Below are positions 1-29,786 of a stretch of DNA of 40,209 nt, in pieces. Both the position numbers and the translations under genes were made by a program. The stretch lies in sequence record OZ035809.1; one strand, given 5' to 3'. The first letter of the stretch is position 1, and each line of letters opens with the position of its first letter. The stretch is from Kayfunavirus T147P5. The notes under the pieces are model-generated. The model worked only from the letters and a program-made list of their open reading frames with translations. It made no database searches and was not told the origin of the DNA.

Positions 1-33
1 TACAAAACGATTAAAGGAGGTGGTAAAACATGA
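1..33 (+). CDS. holin (gene 17.5-like) C-terminal fragment; valid only if the window ends are contiguous (wrap-around)
   Basis: Frame 1 is open from nt 1 to TGA at 31-33 (YKTIKGGGKT*), in the same codon phase as the holin ORF that runs off the window at 40209; stop overlaps the gene 18 ATG (ATGA). Lys-rich tail fits a holin C-terminus. Confidence 0.3.
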   Translation, partial: YKTIKGGGKT

Positions 34-293
34 CGCAGATGGACTTAGAGAAGTTCCTCTTAATGCTAGATACTGAACGTGCTCGACTCATGCTGCAAGA
101 CCTGCGGGATGACTCTAAGCGTTCACCTCAGCTTTACAACGCCATTGAGAAGCTACTGGCTCGTCACAACTTCGTGCTAAGCAAGGTGTCTGTTGACGAG
201 AAGACGCTCGCTGATATGGAGGCCCTGAACGCAGAGTACGATAAGGTGCTCTCAGCGACTGAGGATAATGACACCGGGTATGGTGTTCAATAA
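30..293 (+). CDS. terminase small subunit (T7 gp18-like)
   Basis: RBS AAGGAGG at 14-20; 87 aa; shares LxMLDT...RSPQLYNAI.KLL.RH.F with T7 gp18 (recalled); lies just upstream of spanins and terminase large subunit. Confidence 0.85.
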   Translation: MTQMDLEKFLLMLDTERARLMLQDLRDDSKRSPQLYNAIEKLLARHNFVLSKVSVDEKTLADMEALNAEYDKVLSATEDNDTGYGVQ

Positions 294-295
294 GT

Positions 296-341
296 GTTAG
301 ACTCAAGGTCATTACTATATGTAGTGGCCTTTATGGTTAAC
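296..341 (+). promoter_or_regulatory. RNase III-site-like RNA hairpin (analogous position to T7 R18.5)
   Basis: Inner stem AAGGUCA(305-311)/UGGCCUU(325-331) with one G-U pair, outer stem GUUA(296-299)/UAAC(338-341), 13-nt loop; near-identical element at 16436-16481 and 9519-9565. Confidence 0.5.
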
Positions 342-354
342 ACTAGGAGGATAT

Positions 355-759
355 ATGGAAGGACAATATTTAAGCGGTGGTTACTATAAAGTAACTATCA
401 ATGGTAAGGTTCACGGGGTTCATCGGGTTAAATGGGAGATGGCGCATGGGCCAGTTCCGGCTGGCTACGTCATTGACCATATAGACCGGAACACTCTGAA
501 CAATGAGCTATCAAACCTAAGGGCAATACCTAAAGGCGCTAATGGTGCTAATACCTTATCGTCTAGAGAGTTACCAAAAGGAGTCTACTCACGGTTCGCT
601 AAAAGGCTTAACGCTACAGTGTACTATGGAGACATACGCATTGGTGGCATCAAGAGAACCCATGAGCCTACTACCAATCTACAGAAAGTTGAGGACTGGG
701 CTAAAGAGGCCCACGCAAATCTTCTTAAGGAGGTGTATGGTGTGGTTAACGTTTATTAA
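355..759 (+). CDS. HNH homing endonuclease
   Basis: RBS AGGAGG 345-350; 134 aa with HGVHRVKWEMAHGPVPAGYVIDHIDRNTLNNELSNLR (classic HNH motif); inserted between terminase small subunit and spanin, overlapping the spanin start. Confidence 0.8.
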   Translation: MEGQYLSGGYYKVTINGKVHGVHRVKWEMAHGPVPAGYVIDHIDRNTLNNELSNLRAIPKGANGANTLSSRELPKGVYSRFAKRLNATVYYGDIRIGGIKRTHEPTTNLQKVEDWAKEAHANLLKEVYGVVNVY

Positions 760-1177
760 GAGAGTGGTCCCTTGGCTAGTGGCAGGACTCCTGTTCGCCT
801 CTGGTTACTGGGTAGCTGACAATAAGTGGGAGGCTAAAGTAAATGAAGAATACATCACGAAACTTGAGGCACGAGAGAGTCAACGAACTGCTATCCAAGC
901 ACGAGTCGATGAAGTCTCAGCGGAGTGGCAGGACAAGATGTCCTCGCTGGAAGGCTCTACTGATAGGATTATTAATGACCTTAACCGCGATAACAGGCGG
1001 CTGCTCGTCAAAGTCAAGACCTCAGGTCTCAGCGAGCCAGATTACAGTAGATGCTTCCCTAATGGTCGAGTCGAACTACACCCAGAGACTTCTAAAAGTC
1101 TTATCCGAATAACGCAAGAAGCTGACCTTAAGGAGAAAGCTTTACAGGAAACCATAAGGAGGTTGCGTGGCGAATAA
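737..1177 (+). CDS. i-spanin (Rz-like, T7 gp18.5-like)
   Basis: ATG 737 with RBS AAGGAGG 725-731; N-terminal TM segment ([17 protein letters not shown]); resembles T7 gp18.5; the ORF-track start at 542 is an in-frame upstream extension without RBS. Confidence 0.8.
843..1112 (+). CDS. o-spanin (Rz1-like lipoprotein, T7 gp18.7-like), embedded in +1 frame of i-spanin
   Basis: Signal/lipobox [14 protein letters not shown]; C-terminal VDASLMVE resembles T7 gp18.7 (VDSSLMVE); fully nested within 737-1177 as in T7. Confidence 0.75.
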   Translation: MKNTSRNLRHERVNELLSKHESMKSQRSGRTRCPRWKALLIGLLMTLTAITGGCSSKSRPQVSASQITVDASLMVESNYTQRLLKVLSE

Positions 1178-2936
1178 GAAAACACCTGCTGAAAGACAGG
1201 CAGAAATGACCCAAAGGATGAGGGATGACTTCGTGTTCTTCATATTCGTTCTATGGAAAGCTCTGAGCCTTCCTGTTCCAACACGCTGCCAGATAGATAT
1301 GTGTAAGAAGCTGGCGGCTGGAGATAATCGACGCTTCATCCTTCAAGCATTCCGTGGTATTGGAAAGTCGTTCCTGACCTGTGGTTTCGTGGTCTGGAAG
1401 TTATGGAATAACCCAGACTTGAAGTTCATGATTGTGTCGGCCTCAAAGGAACGAGCCGATGCGAACTCCATCTTCATCAAGCGTATCATCGACCTCATGC
1501 CTCAGCTTCAGGAACTCAAACCTAAACAGGGGCAGCGAGATGCGGTTATCAGCTTCGACGTGGGACCTGCCAAGCCAGACCACTCACCTTCGGTTAAGTC
1601 CGTTGGTATCACTGGTCAGTTGACTGGTAGTCGTGCTGACATCCTGATTGCCGATGACGTTGAGGTTCCGAACAACTCAGCGACTCAGGCTGCACGAGAC
1701 CGTCTATCAGAGCTTGTGAAAGAGTTCGACGCTATCCTGAAGCCGGGAGGTACGATCATCTATCTGGGTACTCCTCAGAACGAGATGACCCTGTACCGTG
1801 AGCTGGAAGGTCGTGGGTACACCACTACTATCTGGCCCGCTCGTTATCCACGCGACAGGAAGGACTGGCAGTCTTACGGCGACCGTCTGGCTCCTATGCT
1901 TCAGGCAGAGCTGGAAGAGGACCCTGAGTCCTTCTACTGGCGTCCGACTGATGAAGTACGCTTCGATGATACGGACCTGAAGGAACGTGAGCTGTCCTAC
2001 GGTAAAGCTGGATTCGCTCTACAGTTCATGCTTAACCCGAACCTGAGTGATGCCGAGAAGTACCCTCTGAAGCTCCGTGACCTTATCGTAGCCGACTTGG
2101 ACCCAGCGTCCAGCCCAATGGTCTACCAATGGTTGCCAAACCCTCAGAACAAGCGTGAGGACGTTCCTAACGTGGGACTCATGGGTGACTCGTACCACAC
2201 GTATCAGACTGTAGGTTCTGCCTTCAGTTCGTACACCCAGAAGATTCTGGTCATAGACCCTAGTGGTCGTGGTAAGGATGAAACTGGCTATGCGGTACTA
2301 TACCAGCTCAACGGCTATATCTTCGCTATGGAAGTTGGCGGTATGCGTGGTGGCTATGAAGACTCTACGCTGGAAGCCTTGGCTAAGATTGGTCGTAAGT
2401 GGAAGGTCAACGAGTACGTCATTGAGGGTAACTTCGGTGATGGTATGTACCTTGAGTTATTCAAGCCTGTAGCTGCCCGTATCCATCCTGCTGCTGTAAC
2501 TGAAGTGAAGAGTAAGGGTCAGAAAGAACTCCGCATCTGTGACGTTCTGGAGCCTATCATGGGGTCTCACCGACTTATCGTTAACGCTGCTGCTATAGTC
2601 CAAGACTACCAGTCTGCCTCTGATAAGGATGGTGTTCGTAACCCTATCTACTCTCTCTTCTACCAGATGACACGTATCTCTCGTGAACGTGGAGCCTTGG
2701 CACACGATGACCGACTTGATGCGCTGGCTATCGGTGTACAGTTCTTCGTTGAGTCTATGGCTAAGGATGCCAACAAAGGCGAACGTGAAGTCACTGAGGA
2801 GTGGCTGGAGGAACAGATGGAGAACCCACGGAAAGGCTTCGAGTCCATCCACACGGAGTTCTGGGACAATGGGGTCCGGGTAACTCACGATACGGACGAC
2901 GAGCTTGGACTAGGGTCCTACGTTACGTTCCACTAG
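1167..2936 (+). CDS. terminase large subunit (T7 gp19-like)
   Basis: 589 aa; long collinear similarity to T7 gp19 ([77 protein letters not shown]). Confidence 0.95.
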
Positions 2937-3030
2937 CTGAATGAATAACTATAGGCGAAAACTGAATTAATACGCGGTTAGTAACCTATAGTTACTACCA
3001 GTCTAACCTACTGTTTTACAAGGAGTTTGG

Positions 3031-3053
3031 ACTTAACTATCACTATAGGGAAG
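3031..3053 (+). promoter_or_regulatory. phage RNAP promoter (phiOR-like)
   Basis: ACTTAACTATCACTATAGGGAAG; matches the 11-copy consensus; +1 G about 3048; between gene 19 and gene 19.5 as in T7. Confidence 0.8.
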
Positions 3054-3232
3054 ACCCCCGGTTACTTATAGTATTACTGTAGTGAATATACATATGCAGA
3101 CTTTATGCAAGACCTTAGGAGGCAGACTCCGAGTTCTTACCTAAGGCTTGCACCGATGGAAGGAGGGTGATATTAATCATAATCCCTCCAATACAGATAG
3201 TAAAGACCATAGATACAGGAGGTATGTAGCAT

Positions 3233-3391
3233 ATGGCAAAGACCAAAGCTGTACTTAAAGCTCTGGCGACCAATCGAGCTACATACAGGTTTCTTGCTGC
3301 TGTTCTACTTGCTGCTGGCGTTACTGCTGGAAGTCAGTGGGTCGGGTGGGTCGAGACTCTCGTATGTTCTCTGGTCTCTCAGTGTAATTAA
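3233..3391 (+). CDS. gp19.5-like small protein
   Basis: Not in ORF track (52 aa); RBS AGGAGG 3216-3221; MAKTKAVLKALATNRATYRFLAAVLLAAG...LVCSLVSQCN resembles T7 gp19.5 (..RVTYRFLVVL...VVCSIL..); same position after gene 19. Confidence 0.6.
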   Translation: MAKTKAVLKALATNRATYRFLAAVLLAAGVTAGSQWVGWVETLVCSLVSQCN

Positions 3392-3460
3392 CGCAATCAT
3401 GGTAACGATTCATGAGCGGAAGACCTAAGGTCAGTACGTGGATAAAGACTCACTCTACTG

Positions 3461-3599
3461 ACCTTAGCTACTGTAGTCAAGGACTTTAGGTAACACCATT
3501 CAGGCTCTCACCTCTGGTCTACCTACTGATTGGTTCACTGGTCGTCATCCGATGGTCTTAGACCTACGGTCCTTGACCTACAGTAGCTGGTTCCTAAGG
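3461..3599. repeat. imperfect inverted repeat (about 24-bp arms, about 85-bp spacer) just left of the presumed terminal repeat
   Basis: Left arm ACCTTAGCTACTGTAGTCAAGGAC (3461-3484) vs right arm GTCCTTGACCTACAGTAGCTGGT (3569-3591), reverse-complementary with one indel and one mismatch. Confidence 0.5.
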
Positions 3600-3637
3600 A
3601 GGGACGATGAGTTTTGGACCAAAAGTTTGAGACCACA

Positions 3638-3826
3638 TCTCACAGTTCAAGAACCTCAAGTCTCCCCATAGGCCATCTTTCAGTCCAGACCAAAGGCCCT
3701 ACCCCAGTCTATCATAAGGTTAGACCGATGGTCAAGACTTCAGGTCAACGATAGGTTGTGGCTATGGCTTAGGGAAGGACGATAGGTAGGGACTATGGGT
3801 CTGTCTTTGAGTCTCTATCTGTATCA
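3638..3826. repeat. probable direct terminal repeat (single collapsed copy) containing the physical genome ends
   Basis: Begins TCTCACAGTTCAAGAACCTCAAGTCTCCCCATAGG, closely resembling the first bases of the T7 genome (recalled); 246 bp downstream of gene 19.5; end near CTATCTGTATCAG is approximate. Confidence 0.45.
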
Positions 3827-3910
3827 GACCATAAGTCACTAACCTACAGTCTCACTAACCTACAGTCTCAACCATAAGACACCAACACCTACAGTCATAG
3901 ACCTACAGTT
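3827..3910. repeat. short direct-repeat array (ACCTACAGT units)
   Basis: ACCTACAGT at 3842, 3858, 3887, 3901 with tandem 16-bp CTCACTAACCTACAGT x2; analogous to the CCTAAAG-type arrays after the T7 terminal repeat. Confidence 0.5.
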
Positions 3911-4020
3911 ACTAGACACAAAGCTATAGACTTAAGGTCTAAGACATGTTAGTCAAAGACTATATCCTCTTACACCATGGGGCCGACGATAGCTTAATCA
4001 ATATTATTTCAAATTACCTA

Positions 4021-4049
4021 TTGACTATAGGTCCAGACTATGGCCTAAT
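4021..4049 (+). promoter_or_regulatory. candidate host sigma70 early promoter (T7 A1-like)
   Basis: -35 TTGACT (4021-4026), 17-bp spacer, -10 CCTAAT/CTAATA (4044-4050); resembles T7 A1 architecture (TTGACT-17-GATACT). Confidence 0.45.
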
Positions 4050-4161
4050 AGCTTACGTCAACACGACACGGCAACAACCGGATAGTGAAGACGCCGGGTC
4101 ATCCCGGTTAAGTAGACAGCCTGATAAGTCATACGAAAAACAGGCAGATGACAGAAAGTAG

Positions 4162-4191
4162 TTGACAAGCAGTAACGATAAGATGTAAGCT
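4162..4191 (+). promoter_or_regulatory. A2/A3-like promoter remnant (TTGACA ... TAAGAT) with non-canonical spacing
   Basis: TTGACA 4162-4167 and TAAGAT 4179-4184 separated by only 11 bp; alternative -10 TAAGCT at 18 bp is weak. Confidence 0.25.
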
Positions 4192-4306
4192 GTACCACAT
4201 CGAAACAACGGTGACGACCGACACTGAAACGGTCTACCTGAAGTCCTCTGACTGAAGGGAATGCTCTTTAACAATCTGGATAAACTCTTAATGTGCGCCG
4301 ATAGCG

Positions 4307-4378
4307 ACTAACTACAGGGTCTTTGAGTCTACATCTGAAGGCCCTGGCTGATAGTCACTAACTTAACGGATGGACACT
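4307..4378 (+). promoter_or_regulatory. conserved early intergenic element E1 (probable RNA processing/regulatory site)
   Basis: GACTAACTACAGGG...GGCCCTGGCTGATAGTCACTAAC; diverged copy of E2/E3; immediately precedes first early ORF. Confidence 0.4.
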
Positions 4379-4624
4379 ATGAAACACTTAAGCACAATCA
4401 CTAATCACAATGAAGTATTCGTGAACACTAAAGGTTATGCGTGGATTCAGCTTAAAGAGATGAGAGGAGCGCGTCACCGTGTGGTAGTTCGCAAGGTATC
4501 AAGCAAGCCGTTCAGCAACTACAGCGTAGATATTGTGCGTATAGACAACGAGACTTACCTGATAGACTCGCAGATAACCGTGAGTCCTACAGCGGGCATC
4601 TCAGCTCCTTATTTCGCTAACTGA
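4370..4624 (+). CDS. hypothetical early protein
   Basis: 84-aa ORF; alternative start ATG 4379 fits the RBS spacing seen for E2/E3; first gene after the host-promoter region. Confidence 0.6.
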   Translation: MDTMKHLSTITNHNEVFVNTKGYAWIQLKEMRGARHRVVVRKVSSKPFSNYSVDIVRIDNETYLIDSQITVSPTAGISAPYFAN

Positions 4625-4627
4625 GAG

Positions 4628-4697
4628 TGATTAACTACAGGTCGTTAGAATCATAGCGGCCTGACTGATAGTCACTAGCAACCTAAGAGGATTCATT
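4628..4697 (+). promoter_or_regulatory. conserved early intergenic element E2
   Basis: TGATTAACTACAGGTCGTTAGAATCATAGCGGCCTGACTGATAGTCACTAGC; about 90 percent identical to E3; fills the intergenic gap; RBS AAGAGGA follows. Confidence 0.4.
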
Positions 4698-4976
4698 ATG
4701 AGACTGAACAAAGCTACAGCAGAAGCCTTCCGCAAGGAGCTTGAATCAAGATTATTGTGTGGAGTGGCGGAAGGAGCCGCTCGATATAAAGAGAATGGTC
4801 TAACGTTCAAGCGCTTTATGTGGGATTGCTATCACGGAGTGGGCCATAAAAAGTCGCAGGAAATAATCACCAGCAACAATGCGGAAGTGCAAGTGATAGG
4901 AGGATACATGGCTAACGTGAAGGATTCACACATAGAGACAATGCTTAAGAATGCACTTAAAGATGTAGCCTACTAG
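4698..4976 (+). CDS. hypothetical early protein
   Basis: 92-aa ORF with RBS AAGAGGA; no recognisable motif. Confidence 0.65.
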   Translation: MRLNKATAEAFRKELESRLLCGVAEGAARYKENGLTFKRFMWDCYHGVGHKKSQEIITSNNAEVQVIGGYMANVKDSHIETMLKNALKDVAY

Positions 4977-5046
4977 TGATTAACTACAGGTCGTTAGACT
5001 GATAGCGGCCTGACTGATAGTCACTAACAACTGAGAGGATATAACT
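4977..5046 (+). promoter_or_regulatory. conserved early intergenic element E3
   Basis: TGATTAACTACAGGTCGTTAGACTGATAGCGGCCTGACTGATAGTCACTAACAAC; contains short hairpin TGACT-GAT-AGTCA; precedes ocr-like gene. Confidence 0.4.
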
Positions 5047-5550
5047 ATGGAACGTAACGCTAACGCATACTATGAGCTGCTGGCTGCAACCGTTGAGGCA
5101 TTTATCGAGCGTATTCAGTACGACCACCTGACTCAAGATGATGACTACAGCGATGCGCTGCATGAGGTCGTAGACGGTCAGGTTCCACACTATTACCACG
5201 AGATTTTTACGGTGATGGCTGCTGATGGTATAGACCACGAGTTCGAAGACTCTGGGCTGATGCCTGAAACCAAGGACGTAACGCGTATACTACAAGCTCG
5301 CATCTATGAGGCGCTTTATAACGATGTGTCTAATAGCTTGGATGTAGTCTGGTTTGAGGCTGAAGAGGCAGACGAAGAGGATGAATATTGGGTAGTTGAC
5401 GCTAAAACAGGCGCAATAATTGTGCAAGCTGTAGCTCTTGAGGTCGCTACTGCATGTGCCAATGTCAACTATGCAACAGGTCGCCACCTGAAGGTGGAAG
5501 ACATCAATGATAACGTAGTGTTCGACCCTGCGGCTGAGGACTGCGAGTGA
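5047..5550 (+). CDS. ocr: Ocr-like DNA-mimic anti-restriction protein (T7 gp0.3-like) with about 54-aa C-terminal extension
   Basis: [43 protein letters not shown] nearly identical to T7 Ocr core; acidic stretch [10 protein letters not shown]; 167 aa versus 117 aa in T7. Confidence 0.8.
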
Positions 5551-5705
5551 TGGTAACTTATGGTATCTGCCAGCACCACGTCGCAAACGCCCGGCTTATG
5601 GTCAAGACCGGGCAATTAAACCACGATGCGACTATGCGTCACCTGAAAGCGGTCTATGAGGGCCGCAAGCGCATACACGACAGTTTGCACGCTGAGGATA
5701 AGTAA
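5550..5705 (+). CDS. small early protein at the position of T7 gene 0.4
   Basis: Not in ORF track (51 aa); ATG overlaps ocr stop (TGATG); ..TMRHLKAVYEGRKRI.. loosely resembles T7 gp0.4 as recalled. Confidence 0.45.
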   Translation: MVTYGICQHHVANARLMVKTGQLNHDATMRHLKAVYEGRKRIHDSLHAEDK

Positions 5706-5818
5706 CGTGTATCATAGCCTGACCATAACGCTGACAGGCGGGTACTGAGTGATAGACGAGAGGTCATCGACTGATAGGTGGCCTCAAAGATTACCACTTG
5801 AATTAATAGGAGTTAACT

Positions 5819-5908
5819 ATGAGTGTGGGATATTGGGTCTGCCTAGCGCCAGTTATCTGGATGATAGGCTATGGGTTATACGACTGTATTAAACGGAAAT
5901 CACTATGA
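5819..5908 (+). CDS. small hydrophobic peptide (29 aa)
   Basis: RBS AGGAG 5808-5812; MSVGYWVCLAPVIWMIGYGLYDCIKRKSL; stop overlaps next ATG. Confidence 0.3.
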   Translation: MSVGYWVCLAPVIWMIGYGLYDCIKRKSL

Positions 5909-6102
5909 GTCTTGCACTATTGATAGCCATAGGCTATGGACTTATCGCCTACGTGCTGATGAGAGACATCTACAAAGCGCGTAAAGTCTACAAATTCAAC
6001 TATGTACGTCTGGGCCGCTGGACTGTACGTCAACCTAACGGACGATTCATGCGCAACCTAGCGAACGTCTGGGATATAGCAACACTTGGGAGCAAACTGT
6101 AA
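5905..6102 (+). CDS. small membrane protein
   Basis: 65-aa ORF with N-terminal TM segment LALLIAIGYGLIAYVLM; translationally coupled to the flanking ORFs. Confidence 0.5.
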   Translation: MSLALLIAIGYGLIAYVLMRDIYKARKVYKFNYVRLGRWTVRQPNGRFMRNLANVWDIATLGSKL

Positions 6103-6428
6103 TGAACAAGTCATACGGGATTAATCTGGTACACTCTATGGACGCAGACATGCAAATGTTAAGCCTACTTGCTACCGGGTATCGTCACGGAACGTCAAGT
6201 CACACCGCACGTCAACAGCAGGAGCGGGACCGGGTACTGCAAGCAAGACTCCGGGCTGAGGGCCATAAGTCCGAGCTGATGTGTCTGGCGTATGGTGGAC
6301 GACCAATCACTGACGATGGTAAACTTTTAGTCTCAGGCTGGAAGGCGATAGACCAACGGTCAACCATCAAGCACACGACTCATGGTGACTTCAGTCATCT
6401 TCACGCTAACCCACTGATATGCAAGTGA
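6102..6428 (+). CDS. hypothetical early protein
   Basis: 108-aa ORF occupying the slot where T7 has gene 0.7; no kinase motifs. Confidence 0.6.
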   Translation: MNKSYGINLVHSMDADMQMLSLLATGYRHGTSSHTARQQQERDRVLQARLRAEGHKSELMCLAYGGRPITDDGKLLVSGWKAIDQRSTIKHTTHGDFSHLHANPLICK

Positions 6429-6433
6429 TTCTG

Positions 6434-6456
6434 ACTTAACTATCACTATAGGACTC
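6434..6456 (+). promoter_or_regulatory. phage RNAP promoter immediately upstream of the RNAP gene
   Basis: ACTTAACTATCACTATAGGACTC; full consensus match; leader 6457-6525 contains direct repeats (AAGTGAAAGAC x2, GACTTTAAGT x2). Confidence 0.75.
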
Positions 6457-6525
6457 AAGGTCTAAGACTCCAAGTGAAAGACCAAAGAGACTTTAAGTGA
6501 AAGACTAATAACAAGGACTTTAAGT

Positions 6526-9207
6526 ATGAGCGTCATCTCTATTGACAAACACGACTTCTCTGATGTGTCGAACGCCATTGAGCCGTTTAACCTGCTGGCT
6601 GACCACTACGGGCAAGACCTTGCAGTCAAACAGCTTCAGCTTGAGCATGAGGCATACACTGAAGGCGAGCGACGTTTCATCAAGAACCTTGAGCGGCAGA
6701 CTGAGCGAGGGGAACTGGCAGACAATCAGGTCGCCAAGCCTTTGATGCAGACTCTGGTTCCTAAGATTGCGCAAGCCGTCAAGGAGTGGCATGAAGGTCC
6801 AGACGGGAAGCTGTCAACCTCTCGTCCGAGCGTAGCGTTCACCATGTTAAGCACTGAAGAGAAGGCCGTCAAGGACCGCTCTCTTCGCATCTCCTGCGAG
6901 TCTGCTGCGGTTATCATACTGAAGGTCATCCTCTCCAAGCTGGTCAAGCCTGAAGGTATACCGATTACACCGATGGCCTCCGCGATAGGTCGCACACTTG
7001 AGGATGAAATCCGATTCGGTCGCATTCGTGACAAGGAGAAGGAGCACTTCAAGAAGGCAATAGCTGATAACCTGAACAAGAGAGCCGGGGCATCATACAA
7101 GAAAGCCTACATGCAAGCGGTCGAGACATCCATGCTGGAGCAAGGCCAACTAGAAGATGCGTGGGGAACTTGGAGTCCGACCGAGGCTGTCCACGTTGGA
7201 ATCAAGATGCTGGAGATTGTCATCCAGTCAACACAACTGGTCGAGCTTAAGCGTTATGGTGCTGGCAATGCAGCGGCTGACGTTGAGATGGTCCACCTGT
7301 CAGACTTCTGGGTCAAGAAGATGGCACAACGCGGCTTCAGCCTTGCGGGCATCGCTCCAGTCTACCAACCTTGCGTAGTTCCACCTAAGCCGTGGACTGG
7401 TGTCGTAGGCGGTGGGTACTGGGCCAAAGGTCGCAGACCATTACCACTGATTCGCTTAGGGTCTAAGTCTGCGGTGGCACGTTACGAAGACGTGTATATG
7501 CCTGAAGTCTATGACGCTGTTAACATCATCCAGAATACACCTTGGAAAGTGAACAAGAAGGTTCTGGACGTGGTGAACATGGTCGAGAAGTTGAACAACA
7601 CGCCTATTGATGACATCCCTCAGATGGAGCCACTGAAGCCTGAAGAATATGCGGGTGAGACTGAAGAGGAACTCAAGGCGTGGAAGAAAGCGGCTGCTGG
7701 TATCTATCGCCGCGAGAAGGCCAGACAGTCACGCAGGTTGTCGCTGAGCTTTATCGTTAACCAAGCGAACAAGTTCTCTCAGTTCAAGGCCATCTGGTTC
7801 CCGTATAACATGGACTGGCGCGGTCGCGTCTACGCTGTGCCGATGTTCAACCCTCAGGGTAACGACATGCAAAAGGGTCTCCTGACTCTGGCAGTCGGTA
7901 AGCCTATTGGTGCTGATGGTTTCAAATGGCTGAAGGTCCACGGTGCAAACTGTGCGGGTGTCGATAAAGTCACCTTCGAGGAGCGCATCAAGTGGGTGGA
8001 AGATAACCACGACAACATCATGGCTACCGCTAAGGCACCGATGGACAGCATTGAGTGGTGGGGTAAGTTAGACTCTCCGTTCTGCTTCCTAGCGTTCTGC
8101 TTCGAGTATGCTGGCGTAATGCACCACGGTTTGTCTTACTCCTGCTCGCTGCCGATAGCTTTCGATGGGTCCTGCTCTGGGATTCAGCACTTCAGCGCGA
8201 TGCTTCGTGATCACATCGGTGGACATGCAGTAAACCTGACGCCTTCCGGTAAGGTCCAAGACATCTACCGCATCGTGTCTGACCGCATTGAGGAGGAGCT
8301 TAAAGTCCTGCTGGTTAATGGCACGGACAACGAGGGGGTCACTAACGAGGATAAGAAAACTGGCGAGATTACCGAACGTATCAAGCTGGGGACACGAGAG
8401 CTGGCCCGCCAGTGGCTGACTTACGGTATGTCACGCAAGGTTACTAAGCGCTCAGTCATGACTCTGGCCTATGGGTCGAAAGAGTACGGCTTTGCAGACC
8501 AAGTTTACGAGGACATCGTGATGCCAGCGATTGACTCAGGGTCTGGCGCTATGTTCACTGAACCAAGCCAAGCGTCTCGCTTCATGGCTAAGATGATTTG
8601 GGAAGCTGTGAGTGTGACCGTAGTTGCTGCAGTTGACGCGATGAAGTGGCTTCAAGGTGCTGCCAAGCTGCTGGCGGCTGAAGTGAAGGACAAGAAGACT
8701 GGAGAAATCCTGAAGCCTTGCCTTCCGGTACACTGGGTCACACCTGATGGGTTCCCGGTCTGGCAGGAATACCGCAAGAAGGATACCACTCGTCTGAACC
8801 TGATGTTCTTAGGGTCATTCAACCTTCAGCCTACCGTCAACAAAGGCACGAAGAAGGAGTTGGATAAGCACAAGCAGGAGTCAGGAATTAGCCCGAACTT
8901 CGTCCACTCACAAGATGGTAGCCATCTCCGCAAGACTGTAGTCCACACTCACCGCAAGTATGGCGTGATGTCATTCGCAGTGATTCACGATAGCTTCGGG
9001 ACCATCCCGGCTGACGCTGAGTATCTGTTCCGGGGTGTCCGTGAGACGATGGTCGAGACCTACCGCGACAACGATGTGCTGCTTGACTTCTACGAGCAGT
9101 TTGAATACCAACTTCATGAGAGCCAGCGCGACAAGTTGCCTGAGCTTCCGAAGAAAGGTAAACTGAATATTGAGGACATTCTATCTTCAGACTTTGCATT
9201 CGCTTAA
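6526..9207 (+). CDS. DNA-directed RNA polymerase, single-subunit (T7 gp1-like)
   Basis: 893 aa; collinear with T7 RNAP (DFSD...PFN.LADHYG, FQPCVVPPKPWTG, WFPYNMDWRGRVYAV, FCFLAFCFEYAG, HDSFGT, C-terminal FAFA). Confidence 0.97.
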   Translation: MSVISIDKHDFSDVSNAIEPFNLLADHYGQDLAVKQLQLEHEAYTEGERRFIKNLERQTERGELADNQVAKPLMQTLVPKIAQAVKEWHEGPDGKLSTSRPSVAFTMLSTEEKAVKDRSLRISCESAAVIILKVILSKLVKPEGIPITPMASAIGRTLEDEIRFGRIRDKEKEHFKKAIADNLNKRAGASYKKAYMQAVETSMLEQGQLEDAWGTWSPTEAVHVGIKMLEIVIQSTQLVELKRYGAGNAAADVEMVHLSDFWVKKMAQRGFSLAGIAPVYQPCVVPPKPWTGVVGGGYWAKGRRPLPLIRLGSKSAVARYEDVYMPEVYDAVNIIQNTPWKVNKKVLDVVNMVEKLNNTPIDDIPQMEPLKPEEYAGETEEELKAWKKAAAGIYRREKARQSRRLSLSFIVNQANKFSQFKAIWFPYNMDWRGRVYAVPMFNPQGNDMQKGLLTLAVGKPIGADGFKWLKVHGANCAGVDKVTFEERIKWVEDNHDNIMATAKAPMDSIEWWGKLDSPFCFLAFCFEYAGVMHHGLSYSCSLPIAFDGSCSGIQHFSAMLRDHIGGHAVNLTPSGKVQDIYRIVSDRIEEELKVLLVNGTDNEGVTNEDKKTGEITERIKLGTRELARQWLTYGMSRKVTKRSVMTLAYGSKEYGFADQVYEDIVMPAIDSGSGAMFTEPSQASRFMAKMIWEAVSVTVVAAVDAMKWLQGAAKLLAAEVKDKKTGEILKPCLPVHWVTPDGFPVWQEYRKKDTTRLNLMFLGSFNLQPTVNKGTKKELDKHKQESGISPNFVHSQDGSHLRKTVVHTHRKYGVMSFAVIHDSFGTIPADAEYLFRGVRETMVETYRDNDVLLDFYEQFEYQLHESQRDKLPELPKKGKLNIEDILSSDFAFA

Positions 9208-9223
9208 TAACAGGAGAGACAAC

Positions 9224-9424
9224 ATGCAATTCGAACACCGTGTATCAAACGTACCTGGTGGTAACAAGGTCGTAACAGTAACAATGGCGGCTGGCAAGGG
9301 TCTATTCAAAGTTACTATGGTCCCGACTGGAACGGCTAAGGCCAAAGGTATCAGCCAGAAGGAGCTGATTCAGGTAATCCAGTGGTCGCACGAGAAGGCC
9401 CTACGGGAAGAGGCAACCAAATGA
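9224..9424 (+). CDS. hypothetical protein
   Basis: RBS CAGGAGAG 9211-9218, ATG 9224; 66 aa; the ORF-track start at 9170 overlaps the RNAP 3' end and lacks RBS. Confidence 0.5.
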   Translation: MQFEHRVSNVPGGNKVVTVTMAAGKGLFKVTMVPTGTAKAKGISQKELIQVIQWSHEKALREEATK

Positions 9425-9500
9425 CAGACCTACAGTTACTGGCCATGTGGCTGGGAGCACTAGCAGTATTCACTTTAATCCAACGCAGAAGAGGTTAACC

Positions 9501-9523
9501 CTAAACTATCACTATAGGATTAG
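9501..9523 (+). promoter_or_regulatory. phage RNAP promoter (phi1.1-like)
   Basis: CTAAACTATCACTATAGGATTAG; +1 about 9518. Confidence 0.8.
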
Positions 9524-9565
9524 ACTAAAGGTCATGACTCAAAGTCGTGGCCTTCATGATTAACC
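9519..9565 (+). promoter_or_regulatory. RNase III-site-like hairpin (analogous position to T7 R1.1)
   Basis: Same inner stem AAGGUCA(9528-9534)/UGGCCUU(9548-9554) as the elements at 296 and 16436. Confidence 0.45.
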
Positions 9566-9595
9566 CTAAATAAACACTACTGGAGATTTAACCGT

Positions 9596-9775
9596 ATGTA
9601 TCAGAACACTATCAACTTCGAGCGCATCCGTGAACGTCAGCAGACTGAAGGTTACATCCCGAAGGGCCGCAAGCTGAACAAGACCAAGCGTGGCGGTGGT
9701 ATCAAAGGCGCTTTCCGAAACGCTGAAGGTAAAGACTCTCTGGTCAACCAAGAGAAATACTTCGTAGGAGCATAA
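9596..9775 (+). CDS. gp1.1-like small basic protein
   Basis: Not in ORF track (59 aa); RBS GGAG 9582-9585; ..KGRKLNKTKRGGG.. resembles T7 gp1.1 (KGRKLNKTKR). Confidence 0.55.
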   Translation: MYQNTINFERIRERQQTEGYIPKGRKLNKTKRGGGIKGAFRNAEGKDSLVNQEKYFVGA

Positions 9776-9779
9776 CTCT

Positions 9780-10043
9780 ATGGGCCGACTTTATAGTGGC
9801 AACCTCAACGCTTTCAGAGCAGCGTGTAACAGGCTTTATCAGTTAGACTTCGCTGTTATATCTCAGGAGTTTCAAGACCATACGTCACGCCAAGAGTGCA
9901 TGAAACTCAGGGTGGAGGACCGAGCTGGTAACATCTTCGCGCTTGAGACCTTCGCACACTACGATGAAGACGTGCTGTATAATACTGCAACAGACTACCT
10001 CAACGGTCTCGCTGACCAACTCGACACATGGAGCAAAGCATAA
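9780..10043 (+). CDS. gp1.2-like protein (dGTPase inhibitor family)
   Basis: 87 aa; MGRLYSGNLNAF.AA.N.L.QLD.AVI...RL.EDR.GN...T.HDEDVL.N..TD.LN closely resembles T7 gp1.2. Confidence 0.8.
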   Translation: MGRLYSGNLNAFRAACNRLYQLDFAVISQEFQDHTSRQECMKLRVEDRAGNIFALETFAHYDEDVLYNTATDYLNGLADQLDTWSKA

Positions 10044-29736: not shown

Positions 29737-29786
29737 AAGGGCCTATAGATTTACCTTAACTATCACTATAGGGACTATAGGCCCTT
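29737..29786 (+). promoter_or_regulatory. 12-bp perfect inverted repeat (RNA hairpin, R13-like) enclosing the phi13 promoter
   Basis: AAGGGCCTATAG (29737-29748) and CTATAGGCCCTT (29775-29786) are exact reverse complements; the promoter lies in the loop. Confidence 0.5.
29754..29776 (+). promoter_or_regulatory. phage RNAP promoter (phi13-like)
   Basis: CCTTAACTATCACTATAGGGACT; +1 about 29771. Confidence 0.8.

Follow-up and report, generated by a model that had tools for sequence, protein, structure and literature searches.

Two predicted host promoters in the early region of a K1F-like Kayfunavirus: an A1 orthologue and an apparent A2/A3 fusion

Introduction

How many promoters does a K1F-like phage present to the RNA polymerase of its host, and which hexamers make them up? 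T7 and T3 carry three early E. coli promoters, A1, A2 and A3 (in T7 the transcripts start at nucleotides 498, 626 and 750), and entry of T7 DNA initially takes in about the first 850 bp of the genome. The corresponding region of Kayfunavirus T147P5 (sequence record OZ035809.1; 40,209 nucleotides, the whole of which is here called the window) had been described in an earlier note, made from the letters alone, as holding one strong A1-like promoter and, downstream, an A2/A3-like element whose hexamers TTGACA and TAAGAT stand too close together to work. The phage would then depend for early expression on a single host promoter, together with a phage promoter at 6434.

Comparison with the mapped promoters of T7 and T3 and with the leaders of close relatives leads us to a different account. 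We consider it likely that positions 4021-4199 of this K1F-like member of the T7 group carry two sigma-70 promoters, both reading rightward: P1, the orthologue of A1, and P2, a fusion of A2 and A3 in which TTGACA and TAAGCT are separated by 18 bp. Early host promoters of the T7 group are textbook elements, those described here are ordinary ones of an already known kind, annotated at the same sites in the sister genome EcoDS1, and their import goes little beyond correct annotation. K1F-type phages would have two host promoters owing to the fusion of A2 and A3; in the engineering of K1F-type therapeutic phages, 4162-4199 is best treated as a live promoter; and, as a lesson of method, promoters should be registered by aligning orthologues rather than by choosing the best-looking hexamer.

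Methods

Relatives were gathered with anchors lying outside the hexamers, yielding 30 distinct K1F-like leaders; these are phylogenetically related, and counts among them overstate the number of independent observations. A metagenome scan with 15-mer anchors returned mostly chance matches and few homologous loci. Because a MAFFT alignment of the whole leader did not place the transcribed region of the window under A3, flanks were compared pairwise, one at a time. A literature search on K1F-like phages found no mapping of transcription starts, the K1F genome paper (PMC1317022) being outside its reach.

Candidate promoters were scored with a crude weight matrix, in which textbook frequencies for the hexamers are joined to a spacer term, and which takes no account of UP elements or of the discriminator. 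As a control, T7 A1 (12.44), A2 (14.1), A3 (15.4) and C came out as the top sites of the T7 leader, and A1, A2, A3 and C likewise as those of the T3 leader. Promoter prediction, one of the checks that the earlier note had proposed, was carried out in two ways. The matrix assigns 12.53 to TTGACA-18-TAAGCT and 9.69 to P1. A consensus sigma-70 scan of positions 1-10000 lists neither element, since it demands A at the second position of the -10 and at least four of six matches in each hexamer. That scan found 9 sites, against 10.1 expected from shuffles. With no excess of promoter-like sites, and with neither element statistically remarkable as an isolated consensus match, the functional case must rest on the relatives; the elements are judged real from their orthology with mapped T7 and T3 promoters and their conservation.

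Results and Discussion

Genome setting of the early region

The 501 bases around the early region matched 596 phage records, of which the best, with 96-98% identity, are K1F-like coliphages; over its first 20 kb the window shares 92-96% identity with Kayfunavirus genomes. It holds a genome of this genus, K1F-like and of the T7 group, in circularly permuted form. The terminase gene ends at 2936, and the physical left end is placed at 3638 by a match to the opening 30 bases of EcoDS1 (TCTCACAGTTCAAG...). The two host-promoter elements are found 384-554 bp from that end, the distance at which T7 and T3 place A1, A2 and A3. With the left end at 3638, the predicted starts of P1 and P2 become genome nucleotides 420 and 562, so that both promoters lie within the first ~850 bp and point rightward, as in the T7 group. 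Since their flanks are orthologous to those of T7 and T3 and they stand near the left end, the earlier assignment of this stretch to the early host-promoter region of a T7-like phage holds, and the four hexamers on which it was based (TTGACT, CCTAAT, TTGACA and TAAGAT) occupy exactly the positions then given (Table 1).

The likeness to T7 and T3 extends to orientation, to the -35 hexamers (TTGACT in A1, TTGACA in A2 and A3), to the A+T-rich stretch upstream of A1, and to the conserved leader blocks, the downstream GTACCAC+A, the boxA-like sequence and the RNase III-type hairpin described below. In this setting, host RNA polymerase would start at P1 and P2 once the leading kilobase or so of DNA is inside the cell, and would then transcribe the shared leader and the early genes as far as the phage RNA polymerase gene.

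Table 1. Features of the early region, in window coordinates.
Feature	Position	Strand	Remarks
A+T-rich stretch upstream of P1, UP-element-like	3998..4020	+	23 nt, 83% A+T
P1 -35, TTGACT	4021..4026	+	same hexamer in T7 A1 and T3 A1
P1 extended -10 TG (-15/-14)	4041..4042	+	one base upstream of CCTAAT
P1 -10, CCTAAT	4044..4049	+	non-canonical (C at -12 and -11); 17-bp spacer, 4027-4043
P1 predicted start, G	4057	+	7 nt after the hexamer; by homology to T7 A1 start A498
Small conserved hairpin in P1 leader, GCCGGG-tcat-CCCGGT	4093..4108	+	fold, -10.9 kcal/mol
Invariant 21-nt block AAGTAGACAGCCTGATAAGTC	4110..4130	+	identical in T7, T3, K1F and 45 IMG/VR contigs
ATGACA, apparent relic of the A2 -35	4148..4153	+	CAGGCAGATGACA aligns with CAGG[CT]ATTGACA of T7/T3 A2
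P2 -35, TTGACA	4162..4167	+	six of six consensus positions
TAAGAT in P2 spacer	4179..4184	+	-10 of the earlier note; 11 bp (4168-4178) after the -35
P2 -10, TAAGCT	4186..4191	+	18-bp spacer; T-12, A-11 and T-7 kept
P2 predicted start, A	4199	+	7 nt downstream of the -10; by homology to T7 A3
boxA-like GCTCTTTAACAA (then TCTGG), common leader	4263..4274	+	identical in T7, T3 and EcoDS1
Long imperfect hairpin before first early gene, RNase III-site-like	4302..4360	+	fold; position of annotated T3 site R0.3
First early ORF downstream of P1/P2, 84 aa	4370..4624	+	gp0.2 in K1F record AM084414
Phage-RNAP promoter upstream of RNA polymerase gene (6526-9207)	6434..6456	+	consensus copy; 'phi' in EcoDS1

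Several further elements lie to the left of P1. Short repeats of the type CCTACAGT (for example taacctacagtctcac, which occurs twice) lie at 3840-3915, between the terminal repeat and the early promoters, and resemble the short repeat arrays of the T7 left end. A leftward sigma-70-like site at 3735-3706 on the minus strand (TTGACC-18-TAGACT, with an extended TG; score 14.9) stands ~98 nt from the left end, the position of the leftward A0 promoter in T3 and T7; another leftward site, at 3480-3452 on the minus strand (TTGACT-17-TAGAGT; score 14.7), belongs to the right-end region.

Register of the downstream promoter

TTGACA, a perfect -35 hexamer, serves every downstream promoter recovered in the 30 leaders. 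The TAAGAT paired with it in the earlier note falls short of the 16-18 bp spacing of a sigma-70 promoter, whereas TAAGCT lies within it. The latter carries all three key bases, yet it matches the consensus at only three of six positions, one fewer than any major T7 or T3 promoter, where the corresponding hexamers of A2 and A3 are TAAGAT or TACGAT. It is followed by GTACCAC+A (4192-4199), which likewise follows TACGAT in T7 A3 (start A750) and TAAGAT in T3 A2; the predicted start is thereby a purine, with the early ORFs lying beyond it on the same strand.

The relatives keep the same register. All 34 distinct TTGACA sites downstream of P1 have TAnnnT at 17 or 18 bp, although no constraint was placed on the -10; tallied per leader, the spacer is 18 bp in 27 cases and 17 bp in 8, and the -10 is TAGTAT in 20, TAAGCT in 8, TAACTT in 3, TAGCAT in 2 and TAATAT in 2. 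At the position of the window's TAAGCT one leader outside the tally (L164) has TAAGAT and another (L052) TAATAT. Relatives such as L047, which reads TTGACA-AGCAGTAACGACTTAAAG-TAATAT-GTACCACA, differ from the window by no change in length, and in relatives the columns of 4179-4184 hold CTTAAA or TATGAT. Judged by these alignments, the downstream element is mis-registered in the earlier note, not collapsed: its TAAGAT is spacer, and the orthologous -10 stands 18 bp from TTGACA.

The matrix score of P2 is on a par with that of T7 A1. In dinucleotide shuffles of 3900-4400, 8.7% attain as much; among all sites of the window on both strands P2 ranks 12th, and it is the best on the + strand in 3900-4400. 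The picture of one strong promoter and one dead one is accordingly not sustained, and by sequence criteria the ranking of the two would be reversed, P1 lacking A-11. With three consensus matches in its -10, P2 is probably somewhat weaker than A2 or A3.

Other -35 partners for TAAGAT at 4179 were sought and rejected: ATGACA at 4148 is 25 bp off, the range of 14-20 bp holds no -35-like hexamer, and TAAGAT has no TG in front of it. Tandem 7-mers, TAAGATG and TAAGCTG (4179-4192), run from the end of the P2 spacer through the -10; most relatives have CTTAAAGTAGTAT here, and the difference, at 8 of 13 positions, suggests mosaic replacement rather than point mutation.

Origin of the downstream promoter

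The two flanks of P2 point to different ancestors. The 45 nt upstream of its TTGACA match T3 A2 at 30 of 30 positions, P2 of EcoDS1 at 44 of 44 and P2 of L010 at 44 of 45, and the 50 nt from the discriminator onward match T7 A3 at 38 of 42 and P3 of L010 at 40 of 49. With an A2-like flank upstream and an A3-like flank downstream, P2 appears to be a fusion of an ancestral A2, which would have supplied the upstream half, and an ancestral A3, which would have supplied the downstream half; the label A2/A3-like in the earlier note was apt. Most likely, recombination between the similar A2 and A3 deleted the interval between them. The ATGACA at 4148, an apparent trace of the A2 -35, was considered as an active element and rejected: it has no usable -10 and scores below zero at both 17 and 18 bp.

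EcoDS1 (NC_011042) has three annotated host RNA polymerase promoters (469-505, 609-647 and 764-800). Its P1 is nearly identical to that of the window (TTGACT-17-CTTAAT), and its P2, annotated as TTGACA-18-TAGCAT, shares with P2 of the window the -35, the 18-bp spacer and the upstream flank. The third promoter that EcoDS1 retains, TTGACA-17-TAACTT, lies in a ~150-bp segment missing from the window, and it is the downstream half of this third type that P2 of the window carries. A single downstream promoter occurs in 23 of the 30 distinct relatives; six, EcoDS1 included, have two, the members of the pair being ~150 bp apart.

Where the clusters of T7 and T3 hold three strong promoters, the window has two, since A2 and A3 are fused. 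The earlier expectation of fewer host promoters than in T7 was in this sense correct; reliance on a single promoter, however, does not follow, given TAAGCT at 18 bp. Members of the T7 group differ in how many early host promoters they have: the Kluyvera phage Kvp1, a T3/Berlin-like member, is reported to possess a single consensus one (PMC2579914).

The A1 orthologue and its unusual -10

P1 is solidly identified, from its position and alignment, as the orthologue of A1, the parallel that the earlier note had drawn. It has the TTGACT hexamer and an A+T-rich stretch upstream (83% A+T; T7 A1 has 87%, and the window averages 50%), which may act as an UP element, and its -10 lies 7 nt before a conserved transcribed block. 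The block begins GTCAAC... in the window and T3 and ATCGAG... in T7, this A being the mapped start. In other T7-group lineages the place of CCTAAT, at the same distance of 7 nt from the conserved GTCAAC or ATCGA, is taken by TATTAT, GATACT, TACTAT, CACTAT, TAGTAT or TATAGT, all with A at -11, and the promoter feature annotated in EcoDS1 ends on the base equivalent to 4057, our predicted start.

The 30 leaders are uniform in architecture. As their -35, 19 have TTGACT and 11 TTGACA; 28 have a 17-bp spacer, and of the other two one has 16 bp and one 18 bp; TGG, which supplies the extended -10 TG, directly precedes the hexamer in every leader; and the hexamer itself (CTTAAT in 13, TTTAAT in 10, CCTAAT in 6 and TGTAAT in 1) invariably ends in TAAT. 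The -10 module of P1 also occurs in an otherwise different lineage (L031). Conservation extends over the whole block between TGG and about +30, and so does not single out the -10 hexamer. Of the bases in a -10 element, the A at -11 matters most. P1 keeps T-7 and has C at -11, where the relatives have C, T or G and none of the 30 has A; in T7 A1 and T3 A1 the hexamers are GATACT and TATTAT.

By sequence P1 is thus less canonical than P2. With moderate confidence we take it for an active extended -10 promoter whose -10 hexamer is weak, a reading that draws on its conserved architecture, on the EcoDS1 annotation and on the precedent of Pr of Pseudomonas putida CF600, a sigma-70 promoter that lacks a recognisable -10 and cannot do without its -15 element (PMC3526299). 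Pr and P1, between which there is no evolutionary relationship, have in common a poor -10 and a TG at -15/-14, the activity of P1 being a prediction; P1 differs in its near-consensus -35 and its four of six -10 matches, whereas Pr has a single -10 match and requires the non-consensus bases themselves.

The consistent absence of A-11 from the A1 orthologue of the genus is a small remaining puzzle, the more so as in the TTTAAT genomes, a third of the 30, a single T-to-A change would give a perfect TATAAT. There is a slim chance that the element, with its near-consensus -35, UP-like stretch and TG, is deliberately non-canonical. If so, selection would have favoured tight polymerase binding with unusual opening kinetics, possibly serving timed DNA entry, tolerance of the phage's Gp2-type inhibitor, or activity without the canonical flipped-out adenine.

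Alternative readings

The same base raises the question of whether P1 initiates at all, since P2 might be the sole active host promoter and the A1-like element a decayed relic, or a site that binds polymerase and rarely opens. This would account for the lack of A-11 in 30 of 30 relatives; the P1 score is, moreover, reached by 57% of dinucleotide shuffles of 3900-4400, the consensus scan rejects the site, and Kvp1 offers the example of a T7-group phage with a single consensus host promoter. In a relic, however, one would not expect TTGAC, TGG, TAAT and a spacer of 16-18 bp to persist in all 30 leaders while the spacer sequence and the first two bases of the hexamer vary, and the A+T-rich stretch is retained as well; Pr is a verified sigma-70 promoter in which a poor -10 depends on a -15 element, and the annotators of EcoDS1 accepted the site. 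We regard loss of P1 function as unlikely. The converse proposal of the earlier note, in which P2 is inactive and the phage lives on the A1-like promoter alone, can point to the fact that TAAGAT is the -10 of A2 in both T7 and T3 and truly lies 11 bp after TTGACA; it is very improbable in view of TAAGCT at 18 bp with an A3-type discriminator and start base, of relatives that show good -10 hexamers in the 18-bp register and no indel, of the concordant EcoDS1 annotation, and of the standing of P2 as the best + strand sigma-70 site of the early region.

Two other readings concern what the conserved letters around P1 stand for. P1 could be active through TAATAG (4046-4051), behind a 19-bp spacer, a hexamer that is kept in 29 of the 30 relatives and regains T-12 and A-11 at the cost of T-7. 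We give this little credence: the register scores 4.65 against 9.69 for CCTAAT, turns the relatives' spacers of 16, 17 and 18 bp into 18, 19 and 20 (L057 having TAATGC at 20 bp), and puts the invariant TG at -17/-16, where we know of no role for it, while the orthologous -10 hexamers of other lineages align with CCTAAT and not with TAATAG. Nor is it credible, except at the very margin, that conservation reflects a protein-coding gene instead of regulatory DNA. An ATG-started ORF of 71 codons does span 3946-4161 and is annotated as 'gp0.1' in one K1F record (AM084414), but among 29 distinct relatives it is full length in 4, shortened in 6 and absent from 19, the other K1F record does without it, and it starts upstream of every candidate promoter; 'gp0.1', an ORF across both promoters, is probably a spurious annotation.

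Elements of the early leader

Between the two promoters, the stem of the small hairpin at 4093-4108 is kept by compensatory changes across T7-group lineages (CCAG/CTGG, CCTGG/CCAGG, CCAC/GTGG and CCCG/CGGG), and the conservation of the 21-nt block that follows exceeds that of the promoters themselves. An Rfam search of 3500-6600 gave no match at E<=1.

Downstream of P2, the leader common to both predicted transcripts holds a boxA-like sequence, so named for its likeness to the boxA of rrn operons and of lambda; its presence suggests Nus-factor-dependent antitermination of the early transcripts. The hairpin at 4302-4360 may be processed by an RNase III-type cleavage. Long imperfect hairpins containing CTAACTACAGG precede each early ORF (4302-4360, with similar ones near 4630 and 4980) and stand where the T3 annotation places its RNase III sites.

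Phage-polymerase promoters

The phage promoter at 6434, to which the earlier note had given a part in early expression, is a genuine one: the consensus T[TA]A[AG]CTATCACT[AG]TAGG occurs 10 times in the window, against 0.01 expected by chance. It cannot, however, start early expression, because the polymerase gene must first be transcribed by the host enzyme; it would only amplify expression of that gene once host-driven transcription from P1 and P2 has yielded polymerase. Its place directly upstream of the gene for its own polymerase implies positive feedback. EcoDS1 and the window share this arrangement, whereas the T7 annotation has no phage promoter directly upstream of the RNA polymerase gene.

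T7 and T3 have a phiOL-type phage promoter upstream of A1; in the window it is absent, the scan for the phage consensus finding none between 3051 and 6436. The core ACTATAGG at 4024 raised the possibility of such a promoter over P1 itself, which we rejected as functional: its agreement with the phage consensus is limited to 13 of 23 positions, as much as 84 sites of the window attain, and a one-base deletion is needed to bring it to 16 of 23.

In total the window has 13 copies of the core ACTATAGG, against 1.15 expected. Four extra cores lie outside the ten consensus promoters, at 2948, 2985 (minus strand), 4024 and 29774; the one at 4024 falls within the -35 and spacer of P1, and an extra core forms a tandem, ACTATAGGGACTATAGG, with the promoter at 29756.
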